Of a DNA stretch of 30,004 nt, positions 249-24,849 are shown one piece after another. The position numbers and the translations under genes are program-made. Below the pieces are notes generated by a model. That model saw nothing but the letters and a program-made list of their open reading frames with translations, did not search any database and was not told the DNA's origin. This stretch comes from a virus (Duplodnaviria; Heunggongvirae; Uroviricota; Caudoviricetes): the IMG/VR virus record IMGVR_UViG_2740892439_000007, positions 1 through 30,004 of that record, one strand, 5' to 3'. Position 1 is the stretch's first letter; each line of letters opens with the position of its first letter.

Positions 249-261
249 AAACAACTTGTTT
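249..261. promoter_or_regulatory. Operator-like palindrome AAACAA-C-TTGTTT (perfect) upstream of CDS 280-846
   Basis: 6-1-6 perfect inverted repeat 19 nt upstream of the ATG; member of a family recurring at least 12 times in the window. Confidence 0.6.
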
Positions 262-279
262 AAGCATTAAGGAAAACAC

Positions 280-846
280 ATGTGCGAGAAATGCAAAGCA
301 ATAGCTGATGAACAAAACGCCCTATTCGAAGAAATGGATGCTAATGAACTTGTCAAAATGTTAGCCATTCTTCGAGGAATAGAAGACGTTTCCATATTTG
401 AGAGACTGTTTACAATACTTAATTTTAATTCCACCTTTGAAGAGCCAACTCAGATTGTAGCTTTGGCACACCATTTCGGTGTTCATTACCTTGCTGAAAA
501 AGAGAGAGCTGATAAGTTGCAAGCGACTTTGGATATGGTGAGCGAGACTCAAGGAACTGATGACGGTAACAAAAGTGAGACGATTATTGCCAGCAAAGAT
601 CGTGAAATTGCCGGGCTTAAATCCTCTCTAACGATGTTGATGTCTGCAATTAACCTTATGTCTTCTAAAGCAGGTTATAAAATGCCATCACTAAACAGCG
701 ACGATCCGATGGCCGTTCGCCAGCTTTTAGGTGCAATGGCCGACCAGCTCGACGACACAAAGAGTCGCCTTGAAGACATGATGCGGGAGCTCACGCATCG
801 CCATGACTTGAATAAGCAGCCGCACAAAACGCAATACGCACTCTAA
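280..846 (+). CDS. Hypothetical protein (188 aa)
   Basis: ORF with ATG start and upstream aagga RBS; own operator upstream and intrinsic terminator downstream. Confidence 0.7.
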   Translation: MCEKCKAIADEQNALFEEMDANELVKMLAILRGIEDVSIFERLFTILNFNSTFEEPTQIVALAHHFGVHYLAEKERADKLQATLDMVSETQGTDDGNKSETIIASKDREIAGLKSSLTMLMSAINLMSSKAGYKMPSLNSDDPMAVRQLLGAMADQLDDTKSRLEDMMRELTHRHDLNKQPHKTQYAL

Positions 847-863
847 TACTGCACCAGTCGACA

Positions 864-885
864 GGGGGCGAAAGCCCCCATTTTT
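864..885 (+). terminator. Rho-independent terminator (gggggc gaaa gccccc + TTTTT)
   Basis: 6-bp GC stem, GAAA tetraloop, then T5 immediately after the stop of CDS 280-846. Confidence 0.75.
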
Positions 886-940
886 ACGCCTTAAATCTGC
901 TGTAACGCCTATGAATGCAGCTTTTATGCCTTTTCAAGTT

Positions 941-975
941 TGCGATAATTACACCAATCAGAAAACAAATTATTT
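941..975 (+). promoter_or_regulatory. Extended -10 promoter (TGCGATAAT, 941-949) followed by operator AAACAA-A-TTATTT (963-975)
   Basis: Cassette ttgcgataat(t/a)acaccaa...agaaaacaa is repeated almost verbatim at 13999, 15441 and 15929. Confidence 0.6.
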
Positions 976-987
976 AATGGTGTAATT

Positions 988-2673: not shown

Positions 2674-2734
2674 TAGGTAAATACTTACTTAATTTGTGTA
2701 AGAATGTAGTAACTAAACGATAAGAGAAAAACAC

Positions 2735-3439
2735 ATGAACAACCTCCAGTTAGAGCATTTTAACGTCACAGGCCATTCTGATTTTCCTTTCAAGTTTACA
2801 TTGAAAGGTTATGCAGAGGATGCGGTAGGCCAGATTATTATTGATAAAGGCATCGTTAAGTTTGAGGGGAATTTTGATGAATCCGCGAAAACATTCATAG
2901 ACTTCGTTGCCAAACGTTGGAGCGAGCAATGGAAAGACATGGAAAAGCGCGCTAGTGAGTTTGATCGGTTCATGGATGCAATGGATACAGCAAAAGAGGC
3001 TCTTGCTGCCGGGACTCCGTTAGATCTTGAGTCACTTTTCAACGGCGAAGTGGCCTCTGCGATGTTCGCCACCATGTTCGCGGGTGAGTTCGTCCGCAGC
3101 GGTGCCAAAAACTACCTTGAGCTGGATTACAACGTCCCTGCAATTGGCGATTTCGTCGTTACCATCCAACGCAAAGAAGGTAAGACGCCAGGTGAACGCG
3201 TCGCAGAGCTTGAGGCCGTTGTGGATCAGCGTAACGGAGAGTGTGACCGTTTGATCAACGAGCTTCATGCACTTCGGGAAGAAAGAATATGTGCGGGTAG
3301 CAATACACGTAATGCAGCGGATATCTACTTCCAGTTAGTTGAGGAATGCCAGATTCCACCAGGTGGCTCTCTTGTCGATTACGTCAGACATTTAATGGCG
3401 GAAGTTAACTCCAGCCATAAAGATGGTGAGGTGCGCTGA
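2735..3439 (+). CDS. Hypothetical protein (234 aa)
   Basis: ORF with ATG preceded by gagaaaaacac leader similar to those of 280 and 3958; first gene of a coupled operon. Confidence 0.65.
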   Translation: MNNLQLEHFNVTGHSDFPFKFTLKGYAEDAVGQIIIDKGIVKFEGNFDESAKTFIDFVAKRWSEQWKDMEKRASEFDRFMDAMDTAKEALAAGTPLDLESLFNGEVASAMFATMFAGEFVRSGAKNYLELDYNVPAIGDFVVTIQRKEGKTPGERVAELEAVVDQRNGECDRLINELHALREERICAGSNTRNAADIYFQLVEECQIPPGGSLVDYVRHLMAEVNSSHKDGEVR

Positions 3440-3819
3440 TGTTTGGCATTGACGCACAGCGTATAGCCGCTTTTGCAAAAAGCCCTCTTGATAATCCCTT
3501 GTCTCGTAGTGAGCAAATGGAGCTGGCAAGGCTTTTTATTCACATTCAAAAACAGGCAGACGTTTTCAATAACATGCCTGATCAACCTATTCTGGATGGT
3601 CACATCCAGATGGTCATTAACAGTCATGAGAAAGGCTGGGCTGCAATCGTCCCCTGCACAATTACATACAAGTTGGCGAAAGAGGTTCAAGAGTTTCGAA
3701 AAGCCAGTGTCGAATCGGAGTCTACCAAAGCCGCAATAAACACTCTTATTCGCATGGGGTTCACATGGACCGGTGGAGCCTACTGGCAAGCACCTCACCC
3801 CATTTTATCCGGCAATTAG
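3439..3819 (+). CDS. Hypothetical protein (126 aa)
   Basis: ATGA start/stop overlap with the upstream gene (translational coupling). Confidence 0.6.
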   Translation: MFGIDAQRIAAFAKSPLDNPLSRSEQMELARLFIHIQKQADVFNNMPDQPILDGHIQMVINSHEKGWAAIVPCTITYKLAKEVQEFRKASVESESTKAAINTLIRMGFTWTGGAYWQAPHPILSGN

Positions 3820-3850
3820 ACGCTACAAATCCTTCGGCATGAATAAATAA

Positions 3851-3869
3851 AGGCCATAAGTTGTGGCCT
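3851..3869 (+). terminator. Hairpin (aggcca taagttg tggcct), weak terminator candidate
   Basis: 6-bp stem after the stop of CDS 3439-3819; T-rich tract only 8 nt further downstream. Confidence 0.35.
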
Positions 3870-3870
3870 T

Positions 3871-3883
3871 AAATAAATTGTTT
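3871..3883. promoter_or_regulatory. Operator-like palindrome AAATAA-A-TTGTTT (1 mismatch), within a 30-bp block also found at 10736
   Basis: aaattgttttctaccttttcttatttg here versus caatttgttttctaccttttgttgattg at 10738. Confidence 0.5.
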
Positions 3884-3957
3884 TCTACCTTTTCTTATTT
3901 GTGAAAATAAACCAGCACTTGGTAGTGCTTATGTAACAGCAAAGAAGAGAAAAACAC

Positions 3958-4200
3958 ATGAGTAACAAAATCGAAAACCCCGTAGTTCTCATTCACAAGC
4001 GTGAGAACCCCGACTCCTATGCGGTGGCGATCACCAATGGGAGTCACGATTATTACGATGGTCTGCTAATGGCCTCAGTGTCGCCTGATGAGGCAGACAA
4101 CTCTTTTGCCGTCTTCGCTATGGTTGGTTACTACATGGCTGCCGAAATTGAGAAGTTGCGGGCGCAGAGAGACGCATTAGCGGCGGAGAATGCAGCCTGA
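3958..4200 (+). CDS. Hypothetical protein (80 aa)
   Basis: ORF with ATG and gagaaaaacac leader. Confidence 0.55.
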   Translation: MSNKIENPVVLIHKRENPDSYAVAITNGSHDYYDGLLMASVSPDEADNSFAVFAMVGYYMAAEIEKLRAQRDALAAENAA

Positions 4201-4226
4201 AAGAATCTGAGCGAGCATTCGATGCG

Positions 4227-4412: not shown

Positions 4413-5134
4413 ATGAGATTTACTACCTGACGTTACGTGAACGTTATTCACCAAAACCAGCGCCTAAATGCTCTGTTTGTGACGAGGAAATGTCAATACA
4501 GCGCATATCTGGAGCACATGTTGTTTATGCCTGTTCCGGTGAGGGTGATGACGGATATTTTAAGATAGGGCGTACTTTTGCAGACGAACATTATGAAAAA
4601 TCACGCGTAACAGTAGTTGATGATAGTGATCCCGATGTGATTGCACTGCTGGACGAACTGGATAAAAGACAGCAACACATCCGACGTCTTGAGCAGGAGA
4701 ACGTAGAGATGGCCCTAACGCTTGAGAAACTGCGTGTTGAGCTGGAGACCGTTAAACAGCGGGAAAAGGATCTGTTTATGGAAAATGTTCGACTTAAGTC
4801 AGGTATAGCAGGTCTGATACACCTCGGTATTCGATATGCGGATGTCGAAGTCATGAAAATAGCTGGTGATGCCCAGCTTTCTACTCCCTGTACTGACAGC
4901 ATCATAAACAGTATTGCATCAGGCGTTTTCACCAAAGAGGTCAGCATTATGAGAACAGTAGAAGTTCGCGCTGAAGATGTAACCCCAGGTGATGTGGTCA
5001 TAACATCTAAAGGCAAACGATGTGCGGTTAAATCTTTCTGGATGGAAGGTGACAAAGTGACTCTGTTCGGTACGGATGGTTCCGAAACGGATTATGACTA
5101 CGACGAATTACTTGTTGTTGAGAGAGCTATCTAA
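4409..5134 (+). CDS. Hypothetical protein (241 aa) with an N-terminal Cys cluster (CSVC...C) and a predicted coiled coil
   Basis: ORF from GTG overlapping the upstream stop; sequence features only, no family recognised. Confidence 0.6.
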   Translation: MNEIYYLTLRERYSPKPAPKCSVCDEEMSIQRISGAHVVYACSGEGDDGYFKIGRTFADEHYEKSRVTVVDDSDPDVIALLDELDKRQQHIRRLEQENVEMALTLEKLRVELETVKQREKDLFMENVRLKSGIAGLIHLGIRYADVEVMKIAGDAQLSTPCTDSIINSIASGVFTKEVSIMRTVEVRAEDVTPGDVVITSKGKRCAVKSFWMEGDKVTLFGTDGSETDYDYDELLVVERAI

Positions 5135-5829
5135 TGACCACCGTTAACAATAAGAAATGCTACCCAAGCGAGCAATATCTTAATGAGCTGATCACCAACA
5201 TAGAGTTTGCTGCAAGGACACCTGTTGAAGTCGTGAGAGCGATGGCAGCAGAGCTACAGAAGCGGCGCGAAGCTGATAGTGCAGAACCTGTAAGCCAAAC
5301 TTACAAGTTGCCAGTTAATACACCTTGCCAAGATGCGCCAGCCCATATCTGGCTGCAAACGGCTGGAGTATGGCCAGAAGATAGCGAGTTAAGCGAATTA
5401 ACGTGGTGCAGCCACAATCAGCACCATGATGACACGCTATATGTTCGAGCTGACCTTGTGAATGGCAACTATCCGGATATTCCGGATAGTTCGGTGCCAG
5501 CGCCAGGAAAGGGCGTCACCGGTGAACGTATCCGCATTAAGCCGCATGTTTATCGCGAACTGGTTAACCGCCTCCACGATACAGCGATCAAGTGTGCTGG
5601 CACCCAGCAATTACGAGAAAAAATTAGCCGTGTTTTGGGCGACGTTATTACGCCAGATCATCATAAACAAGCCGAGAAAAGTGACCTGGAAAGGTGTCAC
5701 CTTGAGGCGGCATTAAATATTAAGCCGGGACATACGCTTGGCATTATCGATGCTCTGTTGGTTCATAAGATGGCCAGGGCTTTATTGCCGCTGGTGGATG
5801 CTGGCGATACAAGCGAGGGTGAAGTATGA
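5134..5829 (+). CDS. Hypothetical protein (231 aa)
   Basis: TAATG overlap with the upstream gene. Confidence 0.6.
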   Translation: MTTVNNKKCYPSEQYLNELITNIEFAARTPVEVVRAMAAELQKRREADSAEPVSQTYKLPVNTPCQDAPAHIWLQTAGVWPEDSELSELTWCSHNQHHDDTLYVRADLVNGNYPDIPDSSVPAPGKGVTGERIRIKPHVYRELVNRLHDTAIKCAGTQQLREKISRVLGDVITPDHHKQAEKSDLERCHLEAALNIKPGHTLGIIDALLVHKMARALLPLVDAGDTSEGEV

Positions 5830-6188
5830 GAGTTGCAGATCACATCAAAAACCTTGAAAGAATTATCGAAAACGGTGAACTCTTAAGAGATCAGATGAGA
5901 CGCACGGCAGAAGTCAGAGAGGCGATAATTCGCAGTCAGGCTGGTAAATTAAAGCAATTGTCAGAGATTAACACGCTATACAAGAACAGACGTAACCGGG
6001 TGGCGCTGCGGCTTCAGAAAGCACGTAATGAAATTAAATTGGTGGAGGCAAAACTGAAAAAACAGATCCAGCGTTACGATCAGCAAGATGCTTTTTATGC
6101 CGCCATCAAGGCGGTTGCTAATGAAATAGGCATCTGGAAGTTGCTGGTGGAGGAAGCAAAGACGAAGTTAAATGCCAACGAAAGCTGA
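5826..6188 (+). CDS. Hypothetical basic coiled-coil protein (120 aa)
   Basis: ATGA overlap with the upstream gene; last gene of the coupled operon. Confidence 0.6.
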   Translation: MRVADHIKNLERIIENGELLRDQMRRTAEVREAIIRSQAGKLKQLSEINTLYKNRRNRVALRLQKARNEIKLVEAKLKKQIQRYDQQDAFYAAIKAVANEIGIWKLLVEEAKTKLNANES

Positions 6189-6261
6189 ACTACAGGTGCC
6201 CACCAGCATACAGAAAATGATTGTTTCCACATCAAGGAGATTTTAATGTTTCACTGAAACA

Positions 6262-6399
6262 TTAAGTAAGCCAGTGCATAATTCCATTTTTTACTGATCT
6301 TAAAAGCAAAATCAAAACGATGATGAGGATAATAGCCAGAATCTGGCTAATAACAGGCGCATCTAAAAATGCACTCAGGAACTGAAAAAAAGCGTTCAT
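6262..6399 (-). CDS. Small hydrophobic protein candidate (45 aa, MNAFFQFLSAFLDAPVISQILAIILIIVLILLLRSVKNGIMHWLT)
   Basis: ORF below the size cutoff of the supplied track; single predicted transmembrane segment; weak RBS. Confidence 0.3.
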   Translation of the reverse strand: MNAFFQFLSAFLDAPVISQILAIILIIVLILLLRSVKNGIMHWLT

Positions 6400-6441
6400 T
6401 CAGGTGGTTCCTTGTCAAATGTAAAGGTGCACTTGCTCACG

Positions 6442-6470
6442 TTGACGTAGAAACCCAACCCCTATATAGT
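6442..6470 (+). promoter_or_regulatory. Sigma-70-like promoter candidate TTGACG-N17-TATAGT
   Basis: Near-consensus -35 and -10 with 17-bp spacer; no convincing CDS downstream; iteron-like motifs and a hairpin (6555-6580) follow. Confidence 0.35.
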
Positions 6471-6516
6471 TGGATTCGGTGAATGAAAGTCGTTAACGTG
6501 AGCTTACGGCACATGT

Positions 6517-6541
6517 TTTCGGAAAAACATCAGGGAACGGC
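6517..6541. repeat. Iteron-like motifs (ttttcggaaaaacatc aggGAACGGC) related to the arrays at 13548 and 16514
   Basis: Shares the block GAAAAACATC-GGGAA with 16606-16625. Confidence 0.4.
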
Positions 6542-6896
6542 TAATTCCTTGATGCGGGTGGGGTCTGTAATGCAGACCCTATCTATTAACGTCATGATTG
6601 CATCTCAAATTTTCTCCTTATCTTCAATTAATCTACATTCATTTCATCTGTTAGCCACCACAATATGTAGAAAATGGCCCTCTTGCAAGTGCATAGCTTT
6701 GTGGATAACTCAGGAAGGAAAAAGTGGCTTTCGCGCACTTTAGACCGGACAAGGCGTTCGAAAAAGTCAATGGGAAGAAAAAATTTGTTAAAAATAACGT
6801 TTGTTTGAATTGTATATATTTATGCCTTTCAATAGTTAGCATCTTATTAACATCTTTTTTAAGAGATAGAGTTCAAAAATATATAGCTTCAACATA

Positions 6897-6916
6897 TACT
6901 GTATGTGTATACAGTA
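6897..6916. promoter_or_regulatory. LexA (SOS) box TACTGTATGTGTATACAGTA overlapping a TATACT -10
   Basis: Perfect CTGT-N8-ACAG dyad 17 nt upstream of the UmuD'-like start codon. Confidence 0.8.
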
Positions 6917-6932
6917 TTAAGAGGCGAGTATT

Positions 6933-7322
6933 ATGGGCTTCCCTTCTCCTGCGGCGGATTATGCTGAGAGCCGTATTTCTCTTGATCAGCAGATAATTAG
7001 ACATCCTTCAGCGACCTACTTCATGAGGGCAGCTGATAGTCATCATCGTGAGGGAATATTACAGGGTGCATTGCTGGTGGTCGATTCCTCACTTACCCCG
7101 GTTGATGGTTCTCTGCTTGTATGCGCTCTGGATGGGGAATATCGCGTAAAAAGATACCGGAAGTACCCACGTCAGCATCTGGAGGATTTAAGAACCGGTA
7201 AGAAGGAAGCATTGCCAAAGGATGACGATGGATGCACGGGCAGCAATGCCGTGTTTGGTGTGATCACTCACATTATCAACGACGCAAGAAGTGGCGAGTT
7301 TGATGATTGTCCCGTGATGTAG
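6933..7322 (+). CDS. UmuD'-like S24 peptidase-family protein, encoded without the N-terminal cleavable arm (HumD-like)
   Basis: Begins M-GFPSPAADY, i.e. at the equivalent of the UmuD Cys24/Gly25 cleavage site; Ser (ADSH) and Lys (RVKR) of the catalytic dyad are present; no upstream in-frame start is available. Confidence 0.8.
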   Translation: MGFPSPAADYAESRISLDQQIIRHPSATYFMRAADSHHREGILQGALLVVDSSLTPVDGSLLVCALDGEYRVKRYRKYPRQHLEDLRTGKKEALPKDDDGCTGSNAVFGVITHIINDARSGEFDDCPVM

Positions 7323-7334
7323 GAGAACTGATTA

Positions 7335-7358: not shown

Positions 7359-7359
7359 A

Positions 7360-8460
7360 TCACACTGCGCGGAATGCGATTTCGCCAGGTATTACTTCAC
7401 CTTGCCAATACATTTGGGCAGCAACGCGATCTGCGAGGTCACGATAAATAGCCGTAAATTCGCTATCTGGACGACTAATAACGGTTGGTGTTCCGTTATC
7501 CAGATCTTCACGAAGAGAGATATGAAGTGGCATTTGGCCTAACAACTGCGTGTTGTATTTCTCGGCCAGTTTCTGTGCGCCACCGGTGCCAAAAATTGGC
7601 TCGTGATGACCGCAGTTACTGCAAATATGCACACTCATGTTTTCGACGATACCCAGTACCGGCACTTCGACTTTTTCGAACATCACAATGCCTTTCTTCG
7701 CATCGATCAGCGCGATGTCTTGCGGCGTAGTTACCACAACCGCACCAGTTACAGGAATGTTCTGCGCCAGCGTCAACTGAATATCACCAGTGCCCGGCGG
7801 CATATCGAGAACGAGATAGTCCAGATCAGGCCATAGAGTTTCCTGCAACATCTGCATCAGCGCCTTGCTGGCCATCGGTCCACGCCACACCATTGCATTG
7901 TCGTCGGTGACCAGATAACCAATAGAGTTGGTTGCCAGGCCATGAGACATGATAGGTGCCATGTGAGTACCGTCAGGTGAGGTTGGACGTTGGTTTTCCG
8001 CTCCCAGCATGGTTGGAATTGATGGACCATAGATATCGGCATCCAAAATACCAACTTTCGCACCTTCAGCAGCCAACGCCAGTGCCAGGTTCACCGCCGT
8101 GGAGGATTTACCCACGCCGCCCTTGCCTGAGCTGACGGCGATAATGTTCTTAACGCCATTAATGCCTGGTTGGTTTTTGACGCGCTTAAGCGTGGCAATG
8201 TTGTACGACAGCTTCCAGTCAATAGCCTTTGCGCCAGTGATACGGAGCAGATCACCACTACATTGCTCTTTCAGGTCTTCAAAAGGCTTATTCCACACGA
8301 AAGGCATGATTAGTTCGACATGCAGTGTGTCATCCATCAACGCAACATGGTGTAACGCTTTAAGCGTAGTCAGGTTGTGTTTCAGGGTTGGGTGCTGAAA
8401 ATTAGCCAGCGTACCGGCTACCATTGCTCTCAGGGCATCCGGCGATTTGGACTCGCTCAT
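7360..8460 (-). CDS. apbC: Fe-S cluster carrier ATPase ApbC/Mrp
   Basis: 366-aa product with P-loop SSGKGGVGKS and C-terminal CxxC; near-identical to E. coli Mrp as recalled. Confidence 0.95.
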   Translation of the reverse strand: MSESKSPDALRAMVAGTLANFQHPTLKHNLTTLKALHHVALMDDTLHVELIMPFVWNKPFEDLKEQCSGDLLRITGAKAIDWKLSYNIATLKRVKNQPGINGVKNIIAVSSGKGGVGKSSTAVNLALALAAEGAKVGILDADIYGPSIPTMLGAENQRPTSPDGTHMAPIMSHGLATNSIGYLVTDDNAMVWRGPMASKALMQMLQETLWPDLDYLVLDMPPGTGDIQLTLAQNIPVTGAVVVTTPQDIALIDAKKGIVMFEKVEVPVLGIVENMSVHICSNCGHHEPIFGTGGAQKLAEKYNTQLLGQMPLHISLREDLDNGTPTVISRPDSEFTAIYRDLADRVAAQMYWQGEVIPGEIAFRAV

Positions 8461-8617: not shown

Positions 8618-10651
8618 ATGACCCAAGTCGCGAAGAAAATTCTGGTGACGTGCGCGCTGCCGTACGCTAACGGCTCAATCCACCTCGGCCATATGCTGGA
8701 GCACATCCAGGCTGATGTCTGGGTTCGTTACCAGCGAATGCGCGGCCACGAGGTTAATTTCATCTGTGCCGACGATGCCCACGGTACGCCGATCATGCTG
8801 AAAGCACAGCAGCTTGGTATCACACCGGAGCAGATGATTGGCGAAATGAGTCAGGAACACCAGACTGATTTCGCAGGCTTTAACATCAGCTATGACAACT
8901 ATCACTCGACGCACAGCGAAGAGAACCGTCAGTTGTCTGAGCTTATCTATACTCGCCTGAAAGAGAACGGTTTTATTAAAAACCGCACTATCTCTCAGTT
9001 GTACGACCCGGAAAAAGGCATGTTCCTGCCGGATCGTTTTGTAAAAGGCACCTGCCCGAAATGTAAAGCGCCAGATCAATACGGCGATAACTGTGAAGTC
9101 TGCGGCGCGACCTACAGCCCGACTGAACTGATTGAGCCGAAATCGGTAGTTTCTGGCGCTACGCCGGTAATGCGTGATTCTGAACACTTCTTCTTTGATC
9201 TGCCCTCTTTCAGCGAAATGTTGCAGGCATGGACCCGCAGCGGCGCGTTGCAGGAGCAGGTGGCGAACAAAATGCAGGAATGGTTTGAATCCGGCCTGCA
9301 ACAGTGGGATATCTCCCGCGATGCGCCTTACTTCGGTTTTGAAATTCCGAACGCGCCGGGCAAATATTTCTACGTCTGGCTGGACGCGCCGATTGGCTAC
9401 ATGGGTTCCTTCAAGAATCTGTGCGACAAGCGCGGCGATACCACCAGCTTCGATGAATACTGGAAGAAAGACTCCACCGCCGAGCTGTACCACTTCATCG
9501 GTAAAGATATTGTTTACTTCCACAGCCTGTTCTGGCCTGCCATGCTGGAAGGCAGCAACTTCCGCAAGCCGACCAACCTGTTTGTTCACGGCTATGTGAC
9601 GGTGAACGGCGCGAAGATGTCCAAGTCTCGCGGCACCTTTATTAAAGCCAGCACCTGGCTGAATCATTTTGACGCCGACAGCCTGCGTTACTACTACGCT
9701 GCGAAACTCTCTTCGCGCATTGATGATATCGATCTCAACCTGGAGGATTTCGTTCAGCGCGTGAATGCCGATATCGTGAACAAAGTGGTTAACCTGGCCT
9801 CCCGTAATGCAGGCTTTATCAACAAGCGTTTTGACGGCGTGCTGGCAAGCGAACTGGCTGACCCGCAACTGTACAAAACCTTTACTGATGCCGCTGAAGT
9901 GATTGGCGAAGCATGGGAAAGCCGCGAATTTGGTAAAGCTATCCGTGAAATCATGGCATTGGCTGACCTGGCTAACCGCTATGTCGATGAACAGGCTCCG
10001 TGGGTGGTGGCGAAGCAGGAAGGACGCGATGCCGATCTGCAGGCGATTTGCTCTATGGGCATTAACCTGTTCCGCGTGCTGATGACGTACCTGAAGCCGG
10101 TACTGCCGAAACTGACTGAACGTGCAGAAGCATTCCTGAATACAGAACTGACCTGGGATGGTATCCAGCAACCGCTGCTGGGCCATAAAGTGAATCCGTT
10201 CAAGGCACTGTATAACCGTATCGATATGAAGCAGGTTGAAGCACTGGTGGAAGCATCTAAAGAAGAAGTGAAAGCAGCTGCCACGCCAGTAACTGGCCCG
10301 CTGGCAGATGATCCGATTCAGGAAACCATCACCTTTGATGACTTCGCCAAAGTTGACCTGCGCGTGGCGCTGATTGAAAACGCAGAGTTTGTAGAAGGTT
10401 CTGACAAACTGCTTCGCCTGACGCTGGATCTCGGTGGTGAAAAGCGTAATGTCTTCTCAGGCATCCGTTCCGCTTATCCAGATCCACAGGCACTGATTGG
10501 TCGTCACACCATTATGGTGGCTAACCTGGCACCACGTAAAATGCGCTTCGGTATCTCTGAAGGCATGGTGATGGCTGCTGGCCCTGGCGGGAAAGATATC
10601 TTCCTGTTAAGCCCGGATGTCGGTGCTAAACCTGGCCACCAGGTTAAGTAA
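8618..10651 (+). CDS. metG: Methionine--tRNA ligase
   Basis: [25 protein letters not shown] (HIGH motif), KMSKS, C-terminal tRNA-binding domain; near-identical to E. coli MetG as recalled; the track ORF start at 8489 is an upstream alternative codon. Confidence 0.97.
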
Positions 10652-10735: not shown

Positions 10736-10799
10736 AAACAATTTGTTTTCTACCTTTTGTTGATTGAGATAATAAGCCACATAAGAAAACAAATTGTTT
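10736..10799 (+). promoter_or_regulatory. Promoter with two perfect operators (10736-10748 AAACAA-T-TTGTTT; 10787-10799 AAACAA-A-TTGTTT) flanking an extended -10 TGAGATAAT (10765-10773)
   Basis: Operator centres 51 bp apart, the same spacing as at 15412/15463. Confidence 0.65.
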
Positions 10800-12616: not shown

Positions 12617-13330
12617 AGAAAACAACTAAATAACAGATCAACGAAACATCAACGCTTTCTCCCGATTTGGTCTAAAAAATTGACGTTATCACACATCACT
12701 TCTTATACCCGTAATTCTACGCAGCAGATAGCGCCACAGCGTCCAAATTTCACCACAAACGACTCAACACACTACCAACAAAAACACACGCTCAAAATCG
12801 CTCCCGTTGCGTTACACAACCATATAAACAACTTATTTTCAGGCATAACAAAACAACTAAATAACACATATGACATTCCCCAAAACAACCAACCTCTTTA
12901 TGGCAGGCTACCGAAAAGACCCACCTCTTCTCCCCAGGCTACCGGACAACCAACCTAACTTTCACAGGCAATCCGAAAACATTCATACGCGCGATACCCA
13001 CGACACGCCATTCCCCAAACAGCGAAGAAACACCAGAATCACTGAAACCCCAACGAAGCCTGTTACCGCAAGGATTCTCTCAATCCCAAAAGACACGAAA
13101 CATAACAATCACGGGAAACGCCATTACCCAATACACGAATAACTACAAAAGCCCTTCACGCACTCCAGACAAACAACTCAAACACAATAACGAAAGCAAT
13201 CGCCCACCTGCCATTACTCCATACACGGAGAAGAACAATCACCAAAACGACGAGAACACCCCATAGAAGAACCACCGCAAAACGAACGAAACCATTTACA
13301 CCGACAGAGAGAACAACACACCCAATTCAC
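12617..13330 (+). other. About 0.7-kb noncoding tract with strong A+C strand bias (roughly 75 percent A+C on the plus strand) and internal repeats
   Basis: Hand counts on two 60-nt lines gave 75 and 77 percent A+C; track ORFs here are low-complexity P/T/N/Q/H-rich translations. Confidence 0.7.
12888..12981 (+). repeat. Three tandem ~30-bp direct repeats (CCACCTCTT...CCAGGCTACCG family)
   Basis: Units at about 12888-12920, 12921-12950, 12951-12981; same family as 15811-15900. Confidence 0.6.
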
Positions 13331-13998: not shown

Positions 13999-14033
13999 TG
14001 CGATAATAACACCAACAAGAAAACATGTTGTTT
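13999..14033 (+). promoter_or_regulatory. Extended -10 promoter TGCGATAAT (13999-14007) plus operator AAACAT-G-TTGTTT (14021-14033)
   Basis: ttgcgataataacaccaacaagaaaaca is identical to 15440-15467. Confidence 0.65.
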
Positions 14034-14045: not shown

Positions 14046-14375
14046 ATGTTTGCACATATCGACATCAACCAAATCAAGAAATTAACTCAAAAAGAGTTTG
14101 ATCAGTTTTATGAGTTAGAAGGTTGGTCTTCCACTCTGATCAATTCGCGGTGGGTGCTTGAGCTGATGACTCGTGATGACGCACCTGCTTTGATGATTTG
14201 CGACATGGGTGAAGATGCTGACTTTATGGATATGAGCGAATTTTGTGTGGACACATACAACCGCAGCCAGAAGTACTACTTCACATGCGATAGCGAAAAT
14301 GACGTGATTTCTAAGGTCTATCTTCACCTCGTCCAGCATTGGGACGTTCAGGAGTTTCTTGAGGTATTCGCGTAA
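14046..14375 (+). CDS. Hypothetical acidic protein (109 aa)
   Basis: ATG 13 nt after the operator; Asp/Glu-rich. Confidence 0.65.
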   Translation: MFAHIDINQIKKLTQKEFDQFYELEGWSSTLINSRWVLELMTRDDAPALMICDMGEDADFMDMSEFCVDTYNRSQKYYFTCDSENDVISKVYLHLVQHWDVQEFLEVFA

Positions 14376-14481
14376 TCCCAACCAAAGCCAGCATTGCTGG
14401 CTTAATTTCTCTATAGCCGCAGGGAAGAACCTACATATCGCTCATGCACCTGATCAATATGCTTTGTAGCCGTTTTCTTAC

Positions 14482-14517
14482 TGGTATCATTTACGCCATT
14501 GAGAAAACAAGTTGTTT
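14482..14517 (+). promoter_or_regulatory. Extended -10 TGGTATCAT (14482-14490) plus perfect operator AAACAA-G-TTGTTT (14505-14517)
   Basis: Same architecture as the other cassettes. Confidence 0.6.
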
Positions 14518-15411: not shown

Positions 15412-15475
15412 AAACAAGTTGTTTTATGCCTATCCTACATTGCGATAATAACACCAACAAGAAAACAAGTTATTA
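15412..15475 (+). promoter_or_regulatory. Promoter with operators at 15412-15424 (perfect) and 15463-15475 (degenerate) flanking extended -10 TGCGATAAT (15441-15449)
   Basis: Operator centres 51 bp apart, as at 10736/10787. Confidence 0.65.
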
Positions 15476-15928: not shown

Positions 15929-15961
15929 GATAATTAATACCAACAAGAAAACAATTTGTTA
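15929..15961 (+). promoter_or_regulatory. -10 GATAAT (15929-15934) plus operator AAACAA-T-TTGTTA (15949-15961)
   Basis: Same cassette family. Confidence 0.55.
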
Positions 15962-15981: not shown

Positions 15982-16464
15982 ATGAATTTTATCGCTACTG
16001 TAAACGCACCCGCACATGGCAATATCGCTGTAACGTTCTCTGACATTGAAAAACGAGTACTTGGTGCATGGCGCGACAATGAGACGGTAGAACTGTCAGC
16101 ACAAGAAAAATGCATTATTGCACGCGACATCATTGGCAATCGTCGTTACTCGCGGGTATTTGAGAAAGCGTATGTGGTAAATTCTGGATTCGGAACGTTC
16201 GTCTTTCCGGTGCGCTCCGGGCGATTCTGCCAGTCCAAGCTGATTGAGTTCGCTACGCAGATTTCTGTCTGGATTAAAACTCAATCGTCGTTCAAATTTT
16301 CCGACGATGAAGCAGTATCGCAGGGGATGCGAATCGCCAACAATGCGATTAAATGCAAAAACATTACGTATACCGCTGGCGTTGACACATGGAAACTGTT
16401 TTGCGCTAACTTTATGCTGAATGTATACGCAAGCAACCGCATCCACATCCTTGATGGCGTGTAA
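15982..16464 (+). CDS. Hypothetical protein (160 aa)
   Basis: ATG 21 nt after the operator; terminator follows. Confidence 0.65.
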   Translation: MNFIATVNAPAHGNIAVTFSDIEKRVLGAWRDNETVELSAQEKCIIARDIIGNRRYSRVFEKAYVVNSGFGTFVFPVRSGRFCQSKLIEFATQISVWIKTQSSFKFSDDEAVSQGMRIANNAIKCKNITYTAGVDTWKLFCANFMLNVYASNRIHILDGV

Positions 16465-18303: not shown

Positions 18304-18828
18304 TTAAAATGGAAGGATTCGTTCAACCCAATCGAAGAAAACAAGTATTTTTCTGCCGTCTTCTAACTTAAGAGTGACCTGGCAAGCATCAACGCCTCTT
18401 GACACCCCTTCAATTTCACGACCGTCTGCCATGTAGACCCTTATAGATTGGTCGTTTTGATAAGCCTTGCGACATATCGCAAAAAAGTCACGGCGTGATG
18501 GCTGATTGTCAACATAGTCTGGATGTATTGTTAGCCTACCTTTGAACTCGCGAGCAATGCCATCGATTACACCTGATTCAATTGTGCTAATGCGCTCAAG
18601 TGGGAGTCTTATACGATTTTCTTTATCATATGGAAGCGGGCATAAATCTAGCTTATTGCGGGAAGGCATTGTCCCCTGAACGTACATGCAAAACACCTGA
18701 CCGTCTTCAAGCGTGACTCTTACAGGAATGTTGTTCTTCCGCCAGAACATAAGTATGTTTTCAGCATGTTCGTAGTCTCGCGGCCAGACTTCAGCCGGTA
18801 TGCCGTAGGTGATGTCCGATGTTCTCAT
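18304..18828 (-). CDS. Tandem Rof (YaeO)-like domain protein (174 aa)
   Basis: Two internal repeats each resembling E. coli Rof as recalled (DY...LEDG ... ExRxRLxxIS/T): VRVTLEDGQVF...ENRIRLPLERISTI and IRVYMADGREI...VTLKLEDGRKILVFFDWVERI. Confidence 0.55.
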   Translation of the reverse strand: MRTSDITYGIPAEVWPRDYEHAENILMFWRKNNIPVRVTLEDGQVFCMYVQGTMPSRNKLDLCPLPYDKENRIRLPLERISTIESGVIDGIAREFKGRLTIHPDYVDNQPSRRDFFAICRKAYQNDQSIRVYMADGREIEGVSRGVDACQVTLKLEDGRKILVFFDWVERILPF

Positions 18829-19598: not shown

Positions 19599-19877
19599 TT
19601 ACGGCAGTTTGCTTAGAATTTGCTCTAAATCTTCCTTTGTCATATTAGAGTTCTCATAGATGCGCATGATTTTCTCACGAGCCTTAGCAGAGACTCCAAC
19701 GGCAGATGAAACTTTGTCAAATTCAGCCATTGTCATCGCTTCCAGAATGGTATTGATAACTTCAGCCTTAGACATTTTGATGTTTTTTTCTTTTAGTTTC
19801 ATTTGAAACTTTCCAAGTTTGTCATTGGCCTTATCGGACAATGCCACCTGACAATAAGTTGTTTTCTTTTCGCTCAT
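19599..19877 (-). CDS. Hypothetical small protein (92 aa)
   Basis: Only 2 nt separate its start from the helicase stop codon. Confidence 0.6.
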   Translation of the reverse strand: MSEKKTTYCQVALSDKANDKLGKFQMKLKEKNIKMSKAEVINTILEAMTMAEFDKVSSAVGVSAKAREKIMRIYENSNMTKEDLEQILSKLP

Positions 19878-19879
19878 AA

Positions 19880-21438
19880 CTAATCTCGTTTCAGAACTCC
19901 AAAATCGAATGCGCCATCAATAGGCAATACACCTTCTGCAAAGCCAGGTGTGGTGTCGATGATGTGTTTTCGCTCATAAGAGTGAGACAACAGGTATTTG
20001 TTGCTAATGTCAATGAAATCAGTGATAAAACACACGTTTGCCTGATTCTTCTTGGCTCGTAAGCCACGACCGACACGCTGCCTCATTTCAACTTCTGCTT
20101 TCCCACCACCAGCCAGAATGACCGCACCAACGCTTGGCACATCAACACCGACATCCAGAATAGTCGAGCCTATTAAAACATCTATTTCGCCAGACGCTAA
20201 ACTGTTCAGCTTTGCTTGCCTTGTCGCCTGGTTTGATTCCCCATAGATGAAGTCAACTCTAAGGCCGGACTCCTTCATCATCTCCATCAGGATTTGCCCG
20301 TGGCGTTTAAGACGAACCAGAGTCATGCAATTGAGAGAATGTTGCTTATAGAGCAATGCTTCGCGCACAATGGCCTCGTTACGTCCCAAATTATACACGA
20401 TCCCCAACTGATAAGCCTTTTGGTAGGCTGTGCTCATACCTACTCTAAAATTGAGGTGTTTGTTGGCAAGTTCGGCTTGATTCTGGCCTCGTCTGGCTTG
20501 TAGGCAACTTTATGATAAAGGAAGTATGGTTTTGCCAGAATGCCTCTATCAATCAGGTACTTTTCCGTGACTTTTATTTCAATTCGCCCGGCCACTGCCA
20601 TCAGGCGCATGTTGGCTTCCGTCGAATCCTTCATGAACGGCGTGGCTGTAAGCGCCAGACGATAGTCTGCGTTCACACATAATCTGGCGATGTCATAGAA
20701 ATTAGAGCCTGAAGACTCATGCGCCTCTTCCAGAATAAGAAGAGAGACACTTGAAAGGAAGCGTTTCACCAACTCCCGACGTTTGAGGTGGTAGCTTTTC
20801 TTATCTGGTGTTGCATCGCGTGGTGGTTCTTCGAGGAAACTTGCAAGAGTTTGAACTGTAGCGACGTTGATATGTCGTGATACCTGGAACTCACCCGAGC
20901 CAATTACTCCAACCTTTTGGTCCTTTAACCACGGTTCGCCATTTTCGGCGCGGTAGTCGATGGATCTCTGGAAGTTTTCGGCCATTTGAAACATCAGAAC
21001 AGAGCGGGTTGTTAAAAATAATGTCATTCGACCGATACGTGCAGCTGCTTTGCAGGCAACGTTAGATTTCCCGCCACCAGTAGCGATCTGCGCAATCATC
21101 ATTCCCTCTCGAACCAGTGTTTCTACTGTCTGATCTTGGTACGCATAATCAGGGTTGTATGGAAATGGGTTAACCGCCGGATTTGGTTTACCCAGCGCCG
21201 GGGCTTTGTCTTTGCGGATATGAACACATTTGATGCCCGCCTTGTTCAAATTAGCCGCCACGGGCTTGGCAAAGCCAGCAGGGAACGAGTTTTTGCTCCA
21301 GTTGAACATTGTGCTTGTGCCCTTCCAGTCGCCAGCCTCGACTTCGTAGCTCAACATTTGCTGCACCAGTTGCTTTACCTTGTCATCTGCGCCAGAAATA
21401 AGCGCATTTACTGCGTTAGATACAATCCGAACAGTCAT
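19880..21438 (-). pseudogene. SF2 DExH-type helicase interrupted by a -1 frameshift (N-terminal part 20440-21438, C-terminal part 19880-20437)
   Basis: Motifs I (ATGGGKS), II (LILEEAHE) and III (LTATP) lie in the upstream ORF and motif VI (QRVGRGLR) in the downstream ORF; the frames change at a T4 run (plus-strand AAAA near 20447). Confidence 0.75.
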
Positions 21439-21520
21439 AAACCTCTTTCCTTAGTGCCTTTTGTATGTTATTTGGCTATTATAATAAGTAAGTGATTACT
21501 TAGTGGATTGTAGCAATAAA

Positions 21521-22201: not shown

Positions 22202-22869
22202 TGACCAAAAAGTTTGAAATCGTATATCGCGACCCGGCAGATCTTATTCCCTATGAGATGAATGCCAAAAAGCATGATGAACAGCAGATCCGAGATCTGG
22301 CCGCAGCCATTAAAAAGCGCGGATTTGACCAGCCAATTACGGTCGATAAGAACGACGTAATTATTACTGGCCACGGCCGCCGTGAGGCTGCAATTTTTGC
22401 TGGACTTGAGCGCGTACCGGTTATTGTTCGCGATGATCTCAGTGATGACGAGGTTCGTGCGAAGCGTCTTGAAGATAACCGACTTGCCAGCATTGATTAC
22501 GATGCAATTAAGCTACAAAAAGAGCTTGAGTCGCTTGTTCTGGACGATATCGAGGTTTTCGGCTTTGAAGAGCGTGAGTTGAATGTTCTCGTTGGCAGTA
22601 TGACAGAAGAAATGGACACCGACTCGCTAGTTATCGATCTTGGCGAAGAAACTAAACGACAGAAGGATGAACACACCGAGATCAGTCGTGAAGTTGCAGC
22701 GGAAGAAGTACGTGTTGTCGACGTATTGGGCTTTAAAACGCTCCCTGCTGGCTCTGCCATTGTTGTTGGTGATTTGCTTGCCCATATGGAAGAAATGACG
22801 GGAGAAAGCGGGGTAGACGCATTTGTGGCATATGCGGAGAAGATCTCTTCCGGGGAGATGGCTGCATGA
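22201..22869 (+). CDS. ParB-like nuclease domain protein 2
   Basis: PYEMNAKKH and IITGHGRREAA motifs; TAATG overlap with the upstream gene and AGGAG RBS. Confidence 0.7.
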   Translation: MTKKFEIVYRDPADLIPYEMNAKKHDEQQIRDLAAAIKKRGFDQPITVDKNDVIITGHGRREAAIFAGLERVPVIVRDDLSDDEVRAKRLEDNRLASIDYDAIKLQKELESLVLDDIEVFGFEERELNVLVGSMTEEMDTDSLVIDLGEETKRQKDEHTEISREVAAEEVRVVDVLGFKTLPAGSAIVVGDLLAHMEEMTGESGVDAFVAYAEKISSGEMAA

Positions 22870-23530
22870 GCAAATACATCATCAACGTATCGTTTCAGAC
22901 ACGCGTAAATAAAACCACGCGCACGTTGGAAATCGCTGAGTCGTTCGGGCTTGGCCTGGACGAAAAAGAGTGGACGCTTTACGACAATCTGGAGCTGGAA
23001 GTGAAGCAGGGCGATGTGGTGTACATCACCGGCCAATCCGGTTCCGGCAAATCCGTTGTGCTGCGCGAGTTGCAACGACAGATGAAGGATGAAGGGCTGT
23101 CTGTAGCTCCATCGATGATTTTACCTTCGATAATGAGGTTAACGTCATCGATCAGTTGGGCAAAACGACCAGCGATGCGCTTGGGTTGTTATCTATGGCA
23201 GGTCTGAACGATGCATATCTGTTTGTTCGCAAGCCTTCTGAAATGTCAGACGGTCAGAAATATCGTCTCAAGATTGCCAAACTGATTGAGTCAGGCGCTA
23301 AAGTGTGGGCTGCTGACGAGTTCGGTGCTGTTCTAGACCGTGTAACCGCTCAGGTTGTGGCATCTAACCTCCAGCGTGCCGCTCGAAAGGTTGGTGCGAC
23401 GGTAATGGTGGCGACGACTCACGAAGACCTGAAGAACGCGCTGCGCCCGGATATGCAGATCACCAAGCACTACAAAGAACGCGCGAAGGTGGAATATCAC
23501 AATGGTAGTCATGATGAGGTTCATTTATGA
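22866..23530 (+). pseudogene. ABC-type P-loop ATPase interrupted by a -1 frameshift
   Basis: Walker A (GQSGSGKS) lies in frame 1; signature-like MSDGQK, Walker B (VWAADEF) and H-loop (TTHED) lie in frame 2; the frames switch near GGG at 23094-23096. Confidence 0.7.
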
Positions 23531-24417
23531 CGGACATCATCATTAAACGCTACCGCCCTGAAGAGTTTCCGCGTCATCTGGACTTTCTGGAGCGAATGAC
23601 TGTCACAAAGGGAACTGTAGAGGACTGGCACGCTCTTAAGTCGCTTCACTACAAAACAGACGGCAAACCTTTCGCGCCAACTTACTATCGCTGCGAACTT
23701 GATGACCGTCTGGTGGGCGTCGTGGTTATGGCTTACCCGAAACTACTGTTGGCACCTCGCCACCGCATGTTTCCTAAGTTGAAACCAACCACTAATACCA
23801 CCGTGGCTAACCAGTACTGGGGTCGGTACGTGAATAACAACTTTGCGGTGATCAGTCGCTCAGTTGTGGATACTCAGTATCGTGGCGTAGGCGTCTCTTA
23901 TCGAATGATTAACCTGGTTAGCAGGATGCATGACCGGCCAATCATTGAGATCCAGTCCTCGATGAGTAAATACAATCCCTTCGCCATGAAAGCAGGGTTT
24001 AAGTTCATCCGCCCTGAGCGACCGAAGAGCTATGAAAGTGCACTGCGTGTATTCCAGCGCCATTTCCGTTCCGACCCGGGTGATAACGAGGCGATCGTCA
24101 AAGAGTTGTTCGCAATGAGCGAGTCTCGTCGTCGCCGTGCACTGCGTGATCTGGTGGCGGACTACCACAAGAACAGTTCCCTGGCAAAAGCTGGGCGGAA
24201 TCGTGGCACGACGATTCAGAACATTGCCGACAGTCTGGTGGACGAGGCCAGCATTGTGAAGCTGCTCAAGGACATTCACAACCTGAGCTTTACGTCTCCG
24301 TTGTATGGTGTGTATCGAAACCCTGACTTTGGTCGTCGACTGCCTGACACGCTGCCACTGCTGGCATTCGACAAACAACCTTTGGATAAACCGTTAGAAA
24401 TTGCTTTACCGGCATAA
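23527..24417 (+). CDS. GNAT-fold acyltransferase-like protein (296 aa) with a C-terminal extension of unknown function
   Basis: Motif-A-like VISRSVVDTQYRGVGVSYRMINLV; ATGA overlap with the upstream gene. Confidence 0.55.
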   Translation: MTDIIIKRYRPEEFPRHLDFLERMTVTKGTVEDWHALKSLHYKTDGKPFAPTYYRCELDDRLVGVVVMAYPKLLLAPRHRMFPKLKPTTNTTVANQYWGRYVNNNFAVISRSVVDTQYRGVGVSYRMINLVSRMHDRPIIEIQSSMSKYNPFAMKAGFKFIRPERPKSYESALRVFQRHFRSDPGDNEAIVKELFAMSESRRRRALRDLVADYHKNSSLAKAGRNRGTTIQNIADSLVDEASIVKLLKDIHNLSFTSPLYGVYRNPDFGRRLPDTLPLLAFDKQPLDKPLEIALPA

Positions 24418-24426
24418 GGATTTGCC

Positions 24427-24693
24427 ATGACGTTAACCGATAAACAAAAGGACATTATCAAAACGCTCAATCTCGGTTATGAGCGAGGTCATTTACTTGA
24501 TCTGGACGAATTGCTTGAAGTTTTGCCGTACAAGACAACCAAGCAAAGTATCCAGTTCTCAATTCGCGCTCTGATAAAAAAGGGGCTGGTGGAGAAAGGG
24601 CATACGCGCCAACGCAGTGACAATCGCTATCACCGCCGAACTCTTGGGTTAACCACTTTAGGTCGAGCCAAAGCGAAGTTACTGGTGATGTAA
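24427..24693 (+). CDS. Small basic protein, putative winged-helix DNA-binding regulator (88 aa)
   Basis: aagga RBS; basic C-terminus; last gene before the late-operon control region. Confidence 0.55.
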   Translation: MTLTDKQKDIIKTLNLGYERGHLLDLDELLEVLPYKTTKQSIQFSIRALIKKGLVEKGHTRQRSDNRYHRRTLGLTTLGRAKAKLLVM

Positions 24694-24720
24694 TCGGTCT
24701 GGGAGCTTATTTAAAGACCT

Positions 24721-24769
24721 GCTTCTGTATATATAAATAATAAGTAACTTATTAAATATATACGGAAGC
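24721..24769. promoter_or_regulatory. 49-bp AT-rich imperfect palindrome (gcttctgtatatat ... atatatacggaagc)
   Basis: 14-bp outer arms with one mismatch and an inner dyad (aataagt a acttatt). Confidence 0.5.
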
Positions 24770-24811
24770 AGGCTTAATAAGACATGCCCAGACCTAATTA
24801 AACACCCCAGA

Positions 24812-24849
24812 AAACAAGTTGGTTAGCAGATGCAGTAAACAAGTTGTTT
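24812..24849 (+). promoter_or_regulatory. Two operators (24812-24824, one mismatch; 24837-24849, perfect) with centres 25 bp apart, upstream of the late operon
   Basis: Same AAACAA-G-TTGTTT family, but different spacing from the early cassettes and no extended -10 between them. Confidence 0.6.

Follow-up and report, generated by a model that had tools for sequence, protein, structure and literature searches.

The window analyzed here, the whole 30,004-nucleotide (nt) stretch of viral DNA in IMG/VR record IMGVR_UViG_2740892439_000007, carries repeated copies of a 13-base palindrome at predicted promoters. The palindrome, AAACAA-N-TTGTTT (AAACAANTTGTTT; here called motif A), consists of two six-base arms around a free central base. 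By sequence comparison the window is an SSU5-like phage-plasmid. Its identity is about 96 to 97% with Escherichia phage Cyrano (pLF82) and related E. coli phage-plasmids and falls to about 82% with Salmonella phage SSU5 and Klebsiella relatives. It contains an accessory-cassette region, a minus-strand block (the UvsW helicase gene, small open reading frames [ORFs], and an FljA-like gene), a parB-like/ABC operon, and the first part of the late operon. Motif A is a real, family-wide cis-regulatory element. Our favored interpretation, which we hold with moderate confidence, is that it is an operator in double-stranded promoter DNA that would serve repression in the plasmid state.

The abundance of motif A in the window is far above background. 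Six perfect copies were found (positions 249, 10736, 10787, 14505, 15412, and 24837), where shuffled sequences lead to an expectation of 0.01. An earlier note on this DNA had spoken of seven perfect copies but listed these same six; its description of them as perfect palindromes is correct. Twelve copies have at most one mismatch, and 17 have at most two, compared with 3.0 expected; none of 100 shuffles attained 17. The degenerate copies that had been named previously (963, 3871, 14021, 15463, 15949, and 24812) are all present, and we add one at 12826. The commonest variant is a change of G10 to A. Among the matches with two mismatches, those at 6778, 9503, and 18339 are probably due to chance, the latter two falling within long ORFs, and the match at 19852 is uncertain.

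Similar results were obtained with related genomes. In unbiased whole-genome scans, motif A was the top palindrome with six-base arms both in Cyrano (nine perfect copies) and in the divergent Klebsiella plasmid pB-KP1118-1 (15 perfect copies). SSU5 has 11 sites with at most one mismatch in 21 kb, against 0.11 expected. The earlier note had made its proposal depend on the motif being rarer in coding and host DNA, and this is the case: 15 of the 18 Cyrano sites with at most one mismatch fall between genes, although coding sequence makes up 87% of that genome (P = 3e-11), and a 41-kb sample of host chromosome contains no site. Unrelated phage DNA (377 kb) has about 0.2 unseeded sites per 10 kb, compared with 4.0 per 10 kb in the window. 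Each perfect copy in Cyrano lies 11 to 65 nt 5' of a plus-strand start, and the genes that follow are terS, parA, the replicative helicase gene, and CYRAN_58, 85, 87, 101, and 106. The 26-kb structural operon of Cyrano contains no perfect copy. Cyrano and pB-KP1118-1 both retain motif A at their orthologous promoters for parA, the helicase, TerB-like, and C101, amid flanking sequences that have drifted.

Two classes of motif A site can be defined by the promoter-facing flank and by position relative to an extended -10 element, an organization that is new relative to the earlier note. Class D sites (aAGA-AAACAAnTTGTTT) begin 13 to 14 nt after the extended -10. Class U sites (gcctt-AAACAAnTTGTTT-TCTgCC) end exactly 19 nt before the -10 hexamer and follow the terminator of the preceding cassette, in keeping with a cassette layout of terminator, promoter, and gene. 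The association with extended -10 elements that had been suggested holds throughout the plus strand of the window, where all five elements matching TGn[TG]AT[AC]AT (TGCGATAAT at 941, 13999, and 15441, TGAGATAAT at 10765, and TGGTATCAT at 14482) have a class D site 13 to 14 nt downstream. Those at 10765 and 15441 also have a second site that ends exactly 19 nt upstream of the -10. Together, the 19 nt before the -10 and the 13 nt after it generate the 51-base-pair (bp) center-to-center spacing previously described for the pairs 10736/10787 and 15412/15463, which is exact in both. If transcription starts about 7 nt past the predicted -10, class D sites would be centered near +13 and class U sites near -38. 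Motif A precedes both cassette genes and terS, as had been claimed. Its distance to the start codon, given before as mostly 12 to 20 nt, is 11 to 21 nt for cassette genes but 40 nt for terS. The sites in the window are listed in the table together with the other features discussed below.

Table. Motif A sites, motif B copies, and candidate regulator genes in the window
Feature	Position	Strand	Context
Class D, perfect, AAGA-flanked	249..261	+	13 nt after CACAAT -10-like hexamer (230-235); 18 nt before ATG of ORF 280-846; terminator-like hairpin 143-164 precedes the site
TGCGATAAT 941-949 and class D 963-975 (1 mismatch)	941..975	+	12 nt before ATG of DUF4942 gene 988-2673
Motif B copy TAGGTAAATACTTACTTA	2674..2691	.	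Upstream of ORF 2735-3439
Class U 3871-3883 (1 mismatch), TCTACC flank; 19 nt; TGTGAAAAT 3900-3908	3871..3908	+	Upstream of ORF 3958-4200; bidirectional terminator-like hairpin 3850-3870 directly before the class U site
Dual unit: U 10736-10748 (perfect), 19 nt, TGAGATAAT 10765-10773, 13 nt, D 10787-10799 (perfect)	10736..10799	+	ATG 10813; orthologous unit kept in Cyrano, class U copy kept in KP1118
Motif A (1 mismatch), class U-like flank (TCA), role uncertain	12826..12838	+	31 nt before ATG 12870
TGCGATAAT 13999-14007 and class D 14021-14033 (1 mismatch)	13999..14033	+	12 nt before ATG of ORF 14046-14375
TGGTATCAT 14482-14490 and class D 14505-14517 (perfect)	14482..14517	+	11 nt before ATG 14529; terminator-like hairpin 14385-14403 upstream
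Dual unit: U 15412-15424 (perfect), 19 nt, TGCGATAAT 15441-15449, 13 nt, D 15463-15475 (2 mismatches)	15412..15475	+	ATG 15495
GATAAT -10 without TG extension (about 15929-15934) and class D 15949-15961 (1 mismatch)	15929..15961	+	20 nt before ATG of ORF 15982-16464
FljA-family protein, CYRAN_114 homologue, candidate reader	18304..18828	-	PF03614; tandem Sm/Hfq fold (model)
92-amino-acid ORF, CYRAN_117 homologue, ribbon-helix-helix-like by eye, weak candidate	19599..19877	-	Strong lysogen expression
Motif B copy TAAGTAAGTGATTACTTA	21485..21502	.	Divergent UvsW/parB-like promoter region
88-amino-acid winged-helix protein, CYRAN_123 homologue, disfavored reader	24427..24693	+	Winged helix-turn-helix (model)
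Late terS leader: tandem class D 24812-24824 (1 mismatch) and 24837-24849 (perfect), 25 bp apart	24812..24879	+	First site 13 nt after CCTAAT -10-like hexamer; hairpin AGAGCGC-ATGGAC-GCGCTCT and GTGTGTTTT (24851-24879), 10 nt before terS ATG 24890

To avoid selection on motif A itself, we anchored all SSU5-like DNA at hand on TGnGATAAT. Among the distinct promoters recovered in this way, 17 have both sites, 17 have only class D, and 14 have only class U, and perfect copies number 22 in class U versus 13 in class D. The 19-nt spacing of class U is constant though the spacer sequences diverge. At U-only promoters the D slot retains aAGA-AAACAA alone in 10 cases, versus 1 for the reverse, which suggests that this half-element additionally serves as an independent element of the leader. 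The half-element, lacking the TTGTTT arm, is seen at the predicted leader starts of U-only promoters in three loci (L010, L081, and L105) and upstream of parA in a Moellerella element that is otherwise free of the motif (L014, 19100-19125). An older A-rich leader sequence may have been the origin of the full palindrome. A simple sigma-70 scan for two hexamers was uninformative: it returned fewer matches than shuffles and did not call the motif A promoters, because a -35 is absent from them. A divergent leftward promoter starting from the class U sites was rejected, as the bottom-strand hexamers CGCAAT and CTCAAT lack the essential A at -11.

Motif A was sought beyond these genomes by scanning the 2.9 million viral contigs of IMG/VR with an extended class D pattern, which matched at least 120 loci. 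Among the matches listed, 21 of the 22 loci with multiple sites are SSU5-like, and the exception consists of chance matches inside long ORFs. No perfect copy occurs in the 108 kb of a syntenic but distant Moellerella phage-plasmid, and the motif is not enriched in an Acinetobacter relative. On this sequence evidence, motif A appears to be private to the enterobacterial SSU5/pHCM2/pMT1 lineage. Restriction to a single lineage argues for a reader encoded by the element. In the searchable literature, the exact motif A strings appeared only as unrelated primers, and no description of the operator was found; a 2026 heteroresistance preprint concerns a different phage-plasmid family.

As a DNA operator, motif A would be bound by a protein with two-fold symmetry that the phage-plasmid itself encodes. 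It would be built into a modular sigma-70 promoter with an extended -10 and no usable -35, in which one or both of two slots are filled: class U at about -38, over the expected place of sigma region 4 and the alpha subunit, and class D at about +13, just past the start site. Occupied slots would block the binding or escape of RNA polymerase. Because 51 bp is about five helical turns, paired sites would lie on the same face of the DNA, and binding across the promoter could then be cooperative. Members of the regulon would include parA, the replicative helicase operon, the majority of the accessory (moron) cassettes, and the late terS operon, which has two tandem sites ahead of a terminator-like hairpin. 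The promoter function of the -10 elements, the repressive effect of binding, and the recognition of motif A as DNA are inferences.

Three observations favor recognition of double-stranded DNA. First, class U copies, which would not be transcribed, are as frequent as class D copies and are more often perfect. Second, the commonest variant, G10 to A, breaks the sole G-C pair of the hairpin that a transcribed copy could form. Third, a single copy folds as RNA with only -0.7 kcal/mol, and 171 of 200 shuffles fold at least as well. An Rfam search of the window gave no match, and a structured cis-regulatory RNA was rejected as the explanation. The only structured leader containing motif A is the double-site late leader. 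Its RNA (24800-24895) folds with -27.8 kcal/mol (z = -2.6), and its tandem motif A sites are predicted to pair with each other; the tandem arrangement is also present at Cyrano 57/82. The GC-rich hairpin and GTGTGTTTT stand directly ahead of the ribosome-binding site of terS. Late transcription must therefore pass a terminator-like structure, which suggests control by attenuation or antitermination.

The earlier note had proposed a single dimeric DNA-binding repressor acting across the whole element. A dimeric repressor acting on DNA is still the best reading of motif A, but motif A is not the only element-wide regulon. A second, dispersed 18-bp palindrome, TARGTAW-N4-WTACYTA (motif B), lies upstream of nrdA, thyX, dam, sbcD, uvsY, the holin gene, and the parB-like operon in Cyrano, pB-KP1118-1, and Moellerella, and fronts most core DNA metabolism genes. 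The GGTAAGtgCTTACC-type sites of the CYRAN_45/46 immunity region resemble motif B, and motif B probably marks the regulon of CYRAN_45, a candidate XRE-type master or immunity repressor. The element thus has at least two operator regulons, and motif A is not the whole story.

Published RNA sequencing (RNA-seq) data for the Cyrano lysogen (PMC9928086, S1 Table) were used to ask how genes behind motif A behave in the plasmid state. Genes directly behind motif A have a median expression of 7.5, compared with a background of 9.8 and with 114.5 for the minus-strand "lysogenic" genes (P = 0.003). This silence despite near-consensus extended -10 elements is compatible with repression without proving it and leaves the level of control undecided. 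By far the top feature of the lysogen is CYRAN_43 (Cyrano 40268-40822, minus strand), a hypothetical protein gene of 184 amino acids with a value of about 7000 versus a background of 10; homologues are lacking in the Klebsiella and Moellerella relatives, and a small RNA could be the source of the signal.

Several points weigh against a DNA operator for repression. In the lysogen data, genes behind motif A are not lower than other plus-strand lytic genes (P = 0.52), and parA, which has a perfect site, is expressed (about 50). FljA-type repression also reduces mRNA levels (PMC4122451), so that silence in RNA-seq cannot separate control at the DNA level from control at the RNA level. The motif A promoters and their start sites are predictions. 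No protein with a classical double-stranded-DNA-binding fold tracks motif A, and the protein best associated with it has an Sm/Hfq fold, which is typical of single-stranded RNA binders. Finally, in class D the aAGA flank and left arm show stronger conservation than the right arm, an asymmetry not expected from a pure DNA-dimer model. It points to an additional constraint linked to the leader or the start site; together with the position of class D just 5' of the Shine-Dalgarno sequence, it leaves room for a component acting on RNA.

To evaluate candidate readers, we asked whether their specificity-determining parts track motif A across Cyrano and pB-KP1118-1, which have the motif, versus Moellerella, which does not. 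The only regulator-like gene whose presence tracks motif A is the FljA-like gene of the minus-strand block (18304-18828), which makes its product the best-associated candidate and one that had previously been missed. This ORF is a full-length member of Pfam family PF03614, "repressor of phase-1 flagellin" (E = 5e-81; 270.9 bits versus a cutoff of 24; profile positions 1 to 170 of 170), and shares the motifs DITYG..AEVWPRDY, RDFF, and FDWVERI with a flagellin-linked FljA. Its predicted structure comprises two tandem Sm domains, closest to Hfq, and a conserved, disordered N-terminal peptide, DITYGIPAEVWPRDY. Such a fold leads to the expectation that the protein binds RNA. PF03614 has long been annotated as a transcriptional regulator, and no paper tying FljA to the Sm fold was found in the searchable literature.

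The distribution of the FljA-like gene resembles that of motif A. The gene is present in 12 of 12 SSU5-like phages in the collection, in 5 of 5 metagenomic loci that cover the corresponding position, and in roughly 830 plasmids, including 62 from Yersinia, but it is absent from the elements of Moellerella and Acinetobacter. Lysogens express it, and it belongs to a minus-strand transcription unit of its own, in which it is cotranscribed with the gene for a signal-peptide protein. No flagellin gene lies near the ORF, and it is not part of a phase-2 flagellin operon. The gene is intact in about 340 Klebsiella plasmids; since K. pneumoniae is classically nonflagellate, host fliC is an unlikely target of the protein. 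Against this candidate, an Sm fold leaves the untranscribed class U sites unexplained, the protein is only 36% identical in pB-KP1118-1 while motif A there is unchanged, and the phyletic association comes from few independent lineages. A chromosomal FljA-like locus that might have served as an independent test (L018) proved to be a degraded SSU5-like element. We suggest only tentatively that the FljA-family protein, with its modeled tandem Sm/Hfq fold, reads motif A, whether on leader RNA, on DNA, or on both. If it does, class D may be recognized partly or wholly in the 5' leader RNA.

The other candidates fared less well. The 88-amino-acid protein encoded at 24427, put forward earlier as a possible regulator, does have a winged-helix fold by modeling, but its probable recognition helix shows no change in the Moellerella element, which lacks the motif, and homologues are present in both the Moellerella and the Acinetobacter elements, so we disfavor it as the reader of motif A. 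The 92-amino-acid CYRAN_117 homologue has no solved ribbon-helix-helix (RHH) relative by sequence, and its reading strand varies among the motif-bearing genomes. Positional equivalents of this ORF occur in all relatives examined, and a class D-like site with two mismatches (19852-19864; AAGA-AAACAACTTATTG on the ORF's own strand) lies within its first codons. Outside the window, the putative β-strand of the ParG-like protein CYRAN_29 is invariant in Moellerella. The RHH antitoxin KacA (CYRAN_27) has an operator of its own, TGTACGG-N7-CCGTACT; this kacAT promoter palindrome, at Cyrano 29025-29140 (L002), is distinct from motifs A and B. CYRAN_45, annotated as a putative repressor with an XRE helix-turn-helix, has the GGTAAGtgCTTACC-type sites and not motif A at its own divergent promoter. 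CYRAN_37 is missing from many motif-bearing Klebsiella plasmids, CYRAN_43 and CYRAN_46 are not in the motif-bearing pB-KP1118-1, and CYRAN_62 is universal yet has no recognizable nucleic-acid-binding features.

Among the alternatives to a DNA operator, the strongest is that motif A acts as an RNA operator. In this model, the FljA-family tandem-Sm protein would bind AGAAAACAAnUUGUUU, an A-rich and U-rich sequence just 5' of the Shine-Dalgarno sequence, in the class D leader, block translation, and trigger mRNA decay, as Salmonella FljA does on the fliC leader. The result would be a translational regulon across the phage-plasmid, comparable to that of T4 RegA but operating through an Sm fold. 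The modeled fold of the full-length PF03614 member invites this comparison, as does the constant location of class D in the predicted leader, 11 to 40 nt before the start codon and with the orientation-specific aAGA flank. The Salmonella fliC leader also contains the CAAGTTGT core, with a flanking CCAATAA, about as far from its Shine-Dalgarno sequence as in motif A leaders, although over the full 13-mer, with differences at 4 of 12 positions, the likeness carries no compelling statistical weight, and the leader of E. coli is less alike. Likewise, the lysogen-expressed FljA-like gene is found in every motif-bearing genome examined and not in two motif-free relatives, and its retention in Klebsiella makes a host fliC target unlikely, but the association derives from few independent lineages and the motif has not changed in pB-KP1118-1 alongside the diverged protein. 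The architecture of the promoters fits the model less well. At 14 distinct promoters the untranscribed class U copy stands alone, with a spacing that is constant to the base; the distance of class D to the start codon is variable, whereas its distance to the -10 is fixed; and exact complementarity of the arms would have no purpose in an unstructured RNA (ΔG, -0.7 kcal/mol). We regard an RNA operator as unlikely overall.

A different kind of explanation is that the palindromes mark a mobile promoter cassette, a module of about 64 bp spread with morons by recombination, so that motif A would be a recombination or boundary sequence or would reflect recent descent. Promoter-stem-loop cassettes have been reported for T4-type phages. 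The motif A promoters are indeed alike beyond the palindrome, for example in TGCGATAATAACACCAACAAGA and in the TCTgCC flank, and they sit in a terminator-promoter-gene layout in cassettes whose content varies strongly among Cyrano, the window, SSU5, and KP1118. The palindrome is, however, also found at core promoters in unrelated surroundings (parA, helicase, nrdB, cobT-like, and terS). It forms an island amid diverged flanks and spacers, and the 19-nt and 13-nt distances are maintained between sequences that are not identical. Descent also leaves a free center between 12 symmetric fixed positions unexplained. We consider this explanation improbable.

Still less probable is a role in partition, in which CYRAN_29, as a ParG-like RHH partner of a type Ib ParA, would bind the palindromes for both segregation and silencing, as in the analogous cases of omega of pSM19035, KorB of RK2, and SopB of N15. 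The parA promoter has a perfect motif A in Cyrano and a copy with one mismatch in KP1118, and the parA operon is the one motif A unit that is clearly expressed in lysogens (50 to 89), as would be the case for an autoregulated gene. CYRAN_29 looks RHH-like by eye and weakly matches the archaeal regulator family aCcr1, which we take to be an RHH family, and half-sites about 7 bp apart in a 6-1-6 arrangement would suit adjacent RHH dimers. Yet the putative reading strand of CYRAN_29, IKSRTMSLEDE, is essentially invariant in the motif-free Moellerella element, parA has a single site and no repeat array, and the listed organism counts for CYRAN_29 matches include no Yersinia plasmid, versus 62 with the FljA-like gene, motif A being unchecked in Yersinia.

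Equally remote is a chromosomal DNA-binding protein of Enterobacteriaceae recruited by the phage-plasmid: such a host factor would fit the confinement of motif A to elements of Enterobacteriaceae and Yersinia, its absence from the Moellerella (Morganellaceae) and Acinetobacter relatives, and the failure to assign a double-stranded-DNA binder encoded by the element, but multicopy clusters occur only in SSU5-like elements among the IMG/VR matches listed, unrelated enterobacterial phages do not use the motif, the sampled host chromosome has no copy, and in the searchable literature the exact sequence occurs only in the unrelated primers. We know of no E. coli regulator with the motif A consensus; the nearest, IHF, is a poor match.

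Further features of the element were noted as well. SSU5-like elements carry T4-like UvsW, UvsY, and gp32-like genes. Four conserved genes of the window align to Cyrano in two frames at 93 to 100% identity, namely those for UvsW (19880-21438), the ABC ATPase (22866-23530), the large terminase (25522-26777), and the portal (26804-28377). This copy thus has frameshifts in essential genes, which indicates either a decaying element or sequencing errors. Positions 4643-7312 are about 93% identical to phage P1 (EaA and LexA-regulated/UmuD-like genes), which points to a recent exchange of cassettes between phage-plasmids of the SSU5 and P1 types. A full-length methionyl-tRNA synthetase gene occupies 8618-10648, and a MinD/ParA-like ATPase gene lies in divergent orientation at 7360-8460 (minus strand); the ATPase gene is one of the few that lysogens of Cyrano express.

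With motif A as a DNA operator, the system resembles the dispersed operators of P1 C1 or RK2 KorB, with a sequence of its own and a precise two-slot architecture. P1 is likewise a temperate phage-plasmid in which many scattered lytic and accessory promoters are silenced via one repeated short operator, some promoters having two. The P1 operators are asymmetric 17-bp sites of the ATTGCTCTAATAAATTT type read by C1, whereas motif A is a perfect 13-bp dyad of different sequence that shares the work with motif B; no C1 homologue is annotated in Cyrano, where no dedicated search for one was made. KorB of RK2/RP4, a ParB-family protein, reads the 13-bp 6-1-6 OB palindrome TTTAGCSGCTAAA, which is present in about a dozen copies at promoter-proximal and other positions and defines a global plasmid regulon. 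Motif A has the same 6-1-6 form and a similar number of copies per replicon, but its sequence is unlike TTTAGCSGCTAAA, and the element's ParB-like proteins are silent in the lysogen, are encoded behind motif B, and also occur in motif-free relatives. Thus, an OB-type operator of a KorB/ParB protein was rejected, the ParB-like genes not tracking motif A.

Other systems share single traits with the motif A regulon. CopG of pMV158, Arc, Mnt, omega, and ParG are small repressors that bind short, symmetric, promoter-overlapping elements (13 bp in CopG) with close half-sites, but the RHH-like candidates of the element, CYRAN_29 and CYRAN_117, fail the covariation test. T4 RegA offers a precedent for a phage protein that could shut off many early mRNAs via a common short leader sequence; RegA sites overlap the start codon, whereas motif A lies 11 to 40 nt before it and is also found outside transcripts. 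Salmonella FljA belongs to the same family, PF03614, as the candidate reader and has a short target between promoter and Shine-Dalgarno sequence with the CAAGTTGT core seen in motif A. It differs in having one host mRNA target and in being linked to flagellin, while the element has no flagellin gene and dozens of candidate targets of its own, a third of them untranscribed.

SSU5-like phage-plasmids are among the commonest in clinical Enterobacteriaceae, with about 800 in PLSDB, including those of the Y. pestis pMT1 and Salmonella pHCM2 types, and the silencing of their genes in the plasmid state has scarcely been studied. The analysis defines two genome-wide operator families for them, with promoter architecture and gene sets, and removes three obvious regulator candidates while leaving one unexpected one. 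With motif A as a simple sequence signature, promoters and the limits of cassettes can also be annotated in these elements. If the FljA-family protein does read it, a large phage-plasmid family would have a global lysogeny regulator with an Sm fold, linking lysogeny to flagellar phase variation and adding a sequence-specific, element-encoded Sm-fold regulator to bacterial gene control. In that case the FljA of Salmonella and E. coli would plausibly be a domesticated, single-target offshoot, and the operator in the fliC leader, with its CAAGTTGT core, would have arisen by capture of a copy of motif A.

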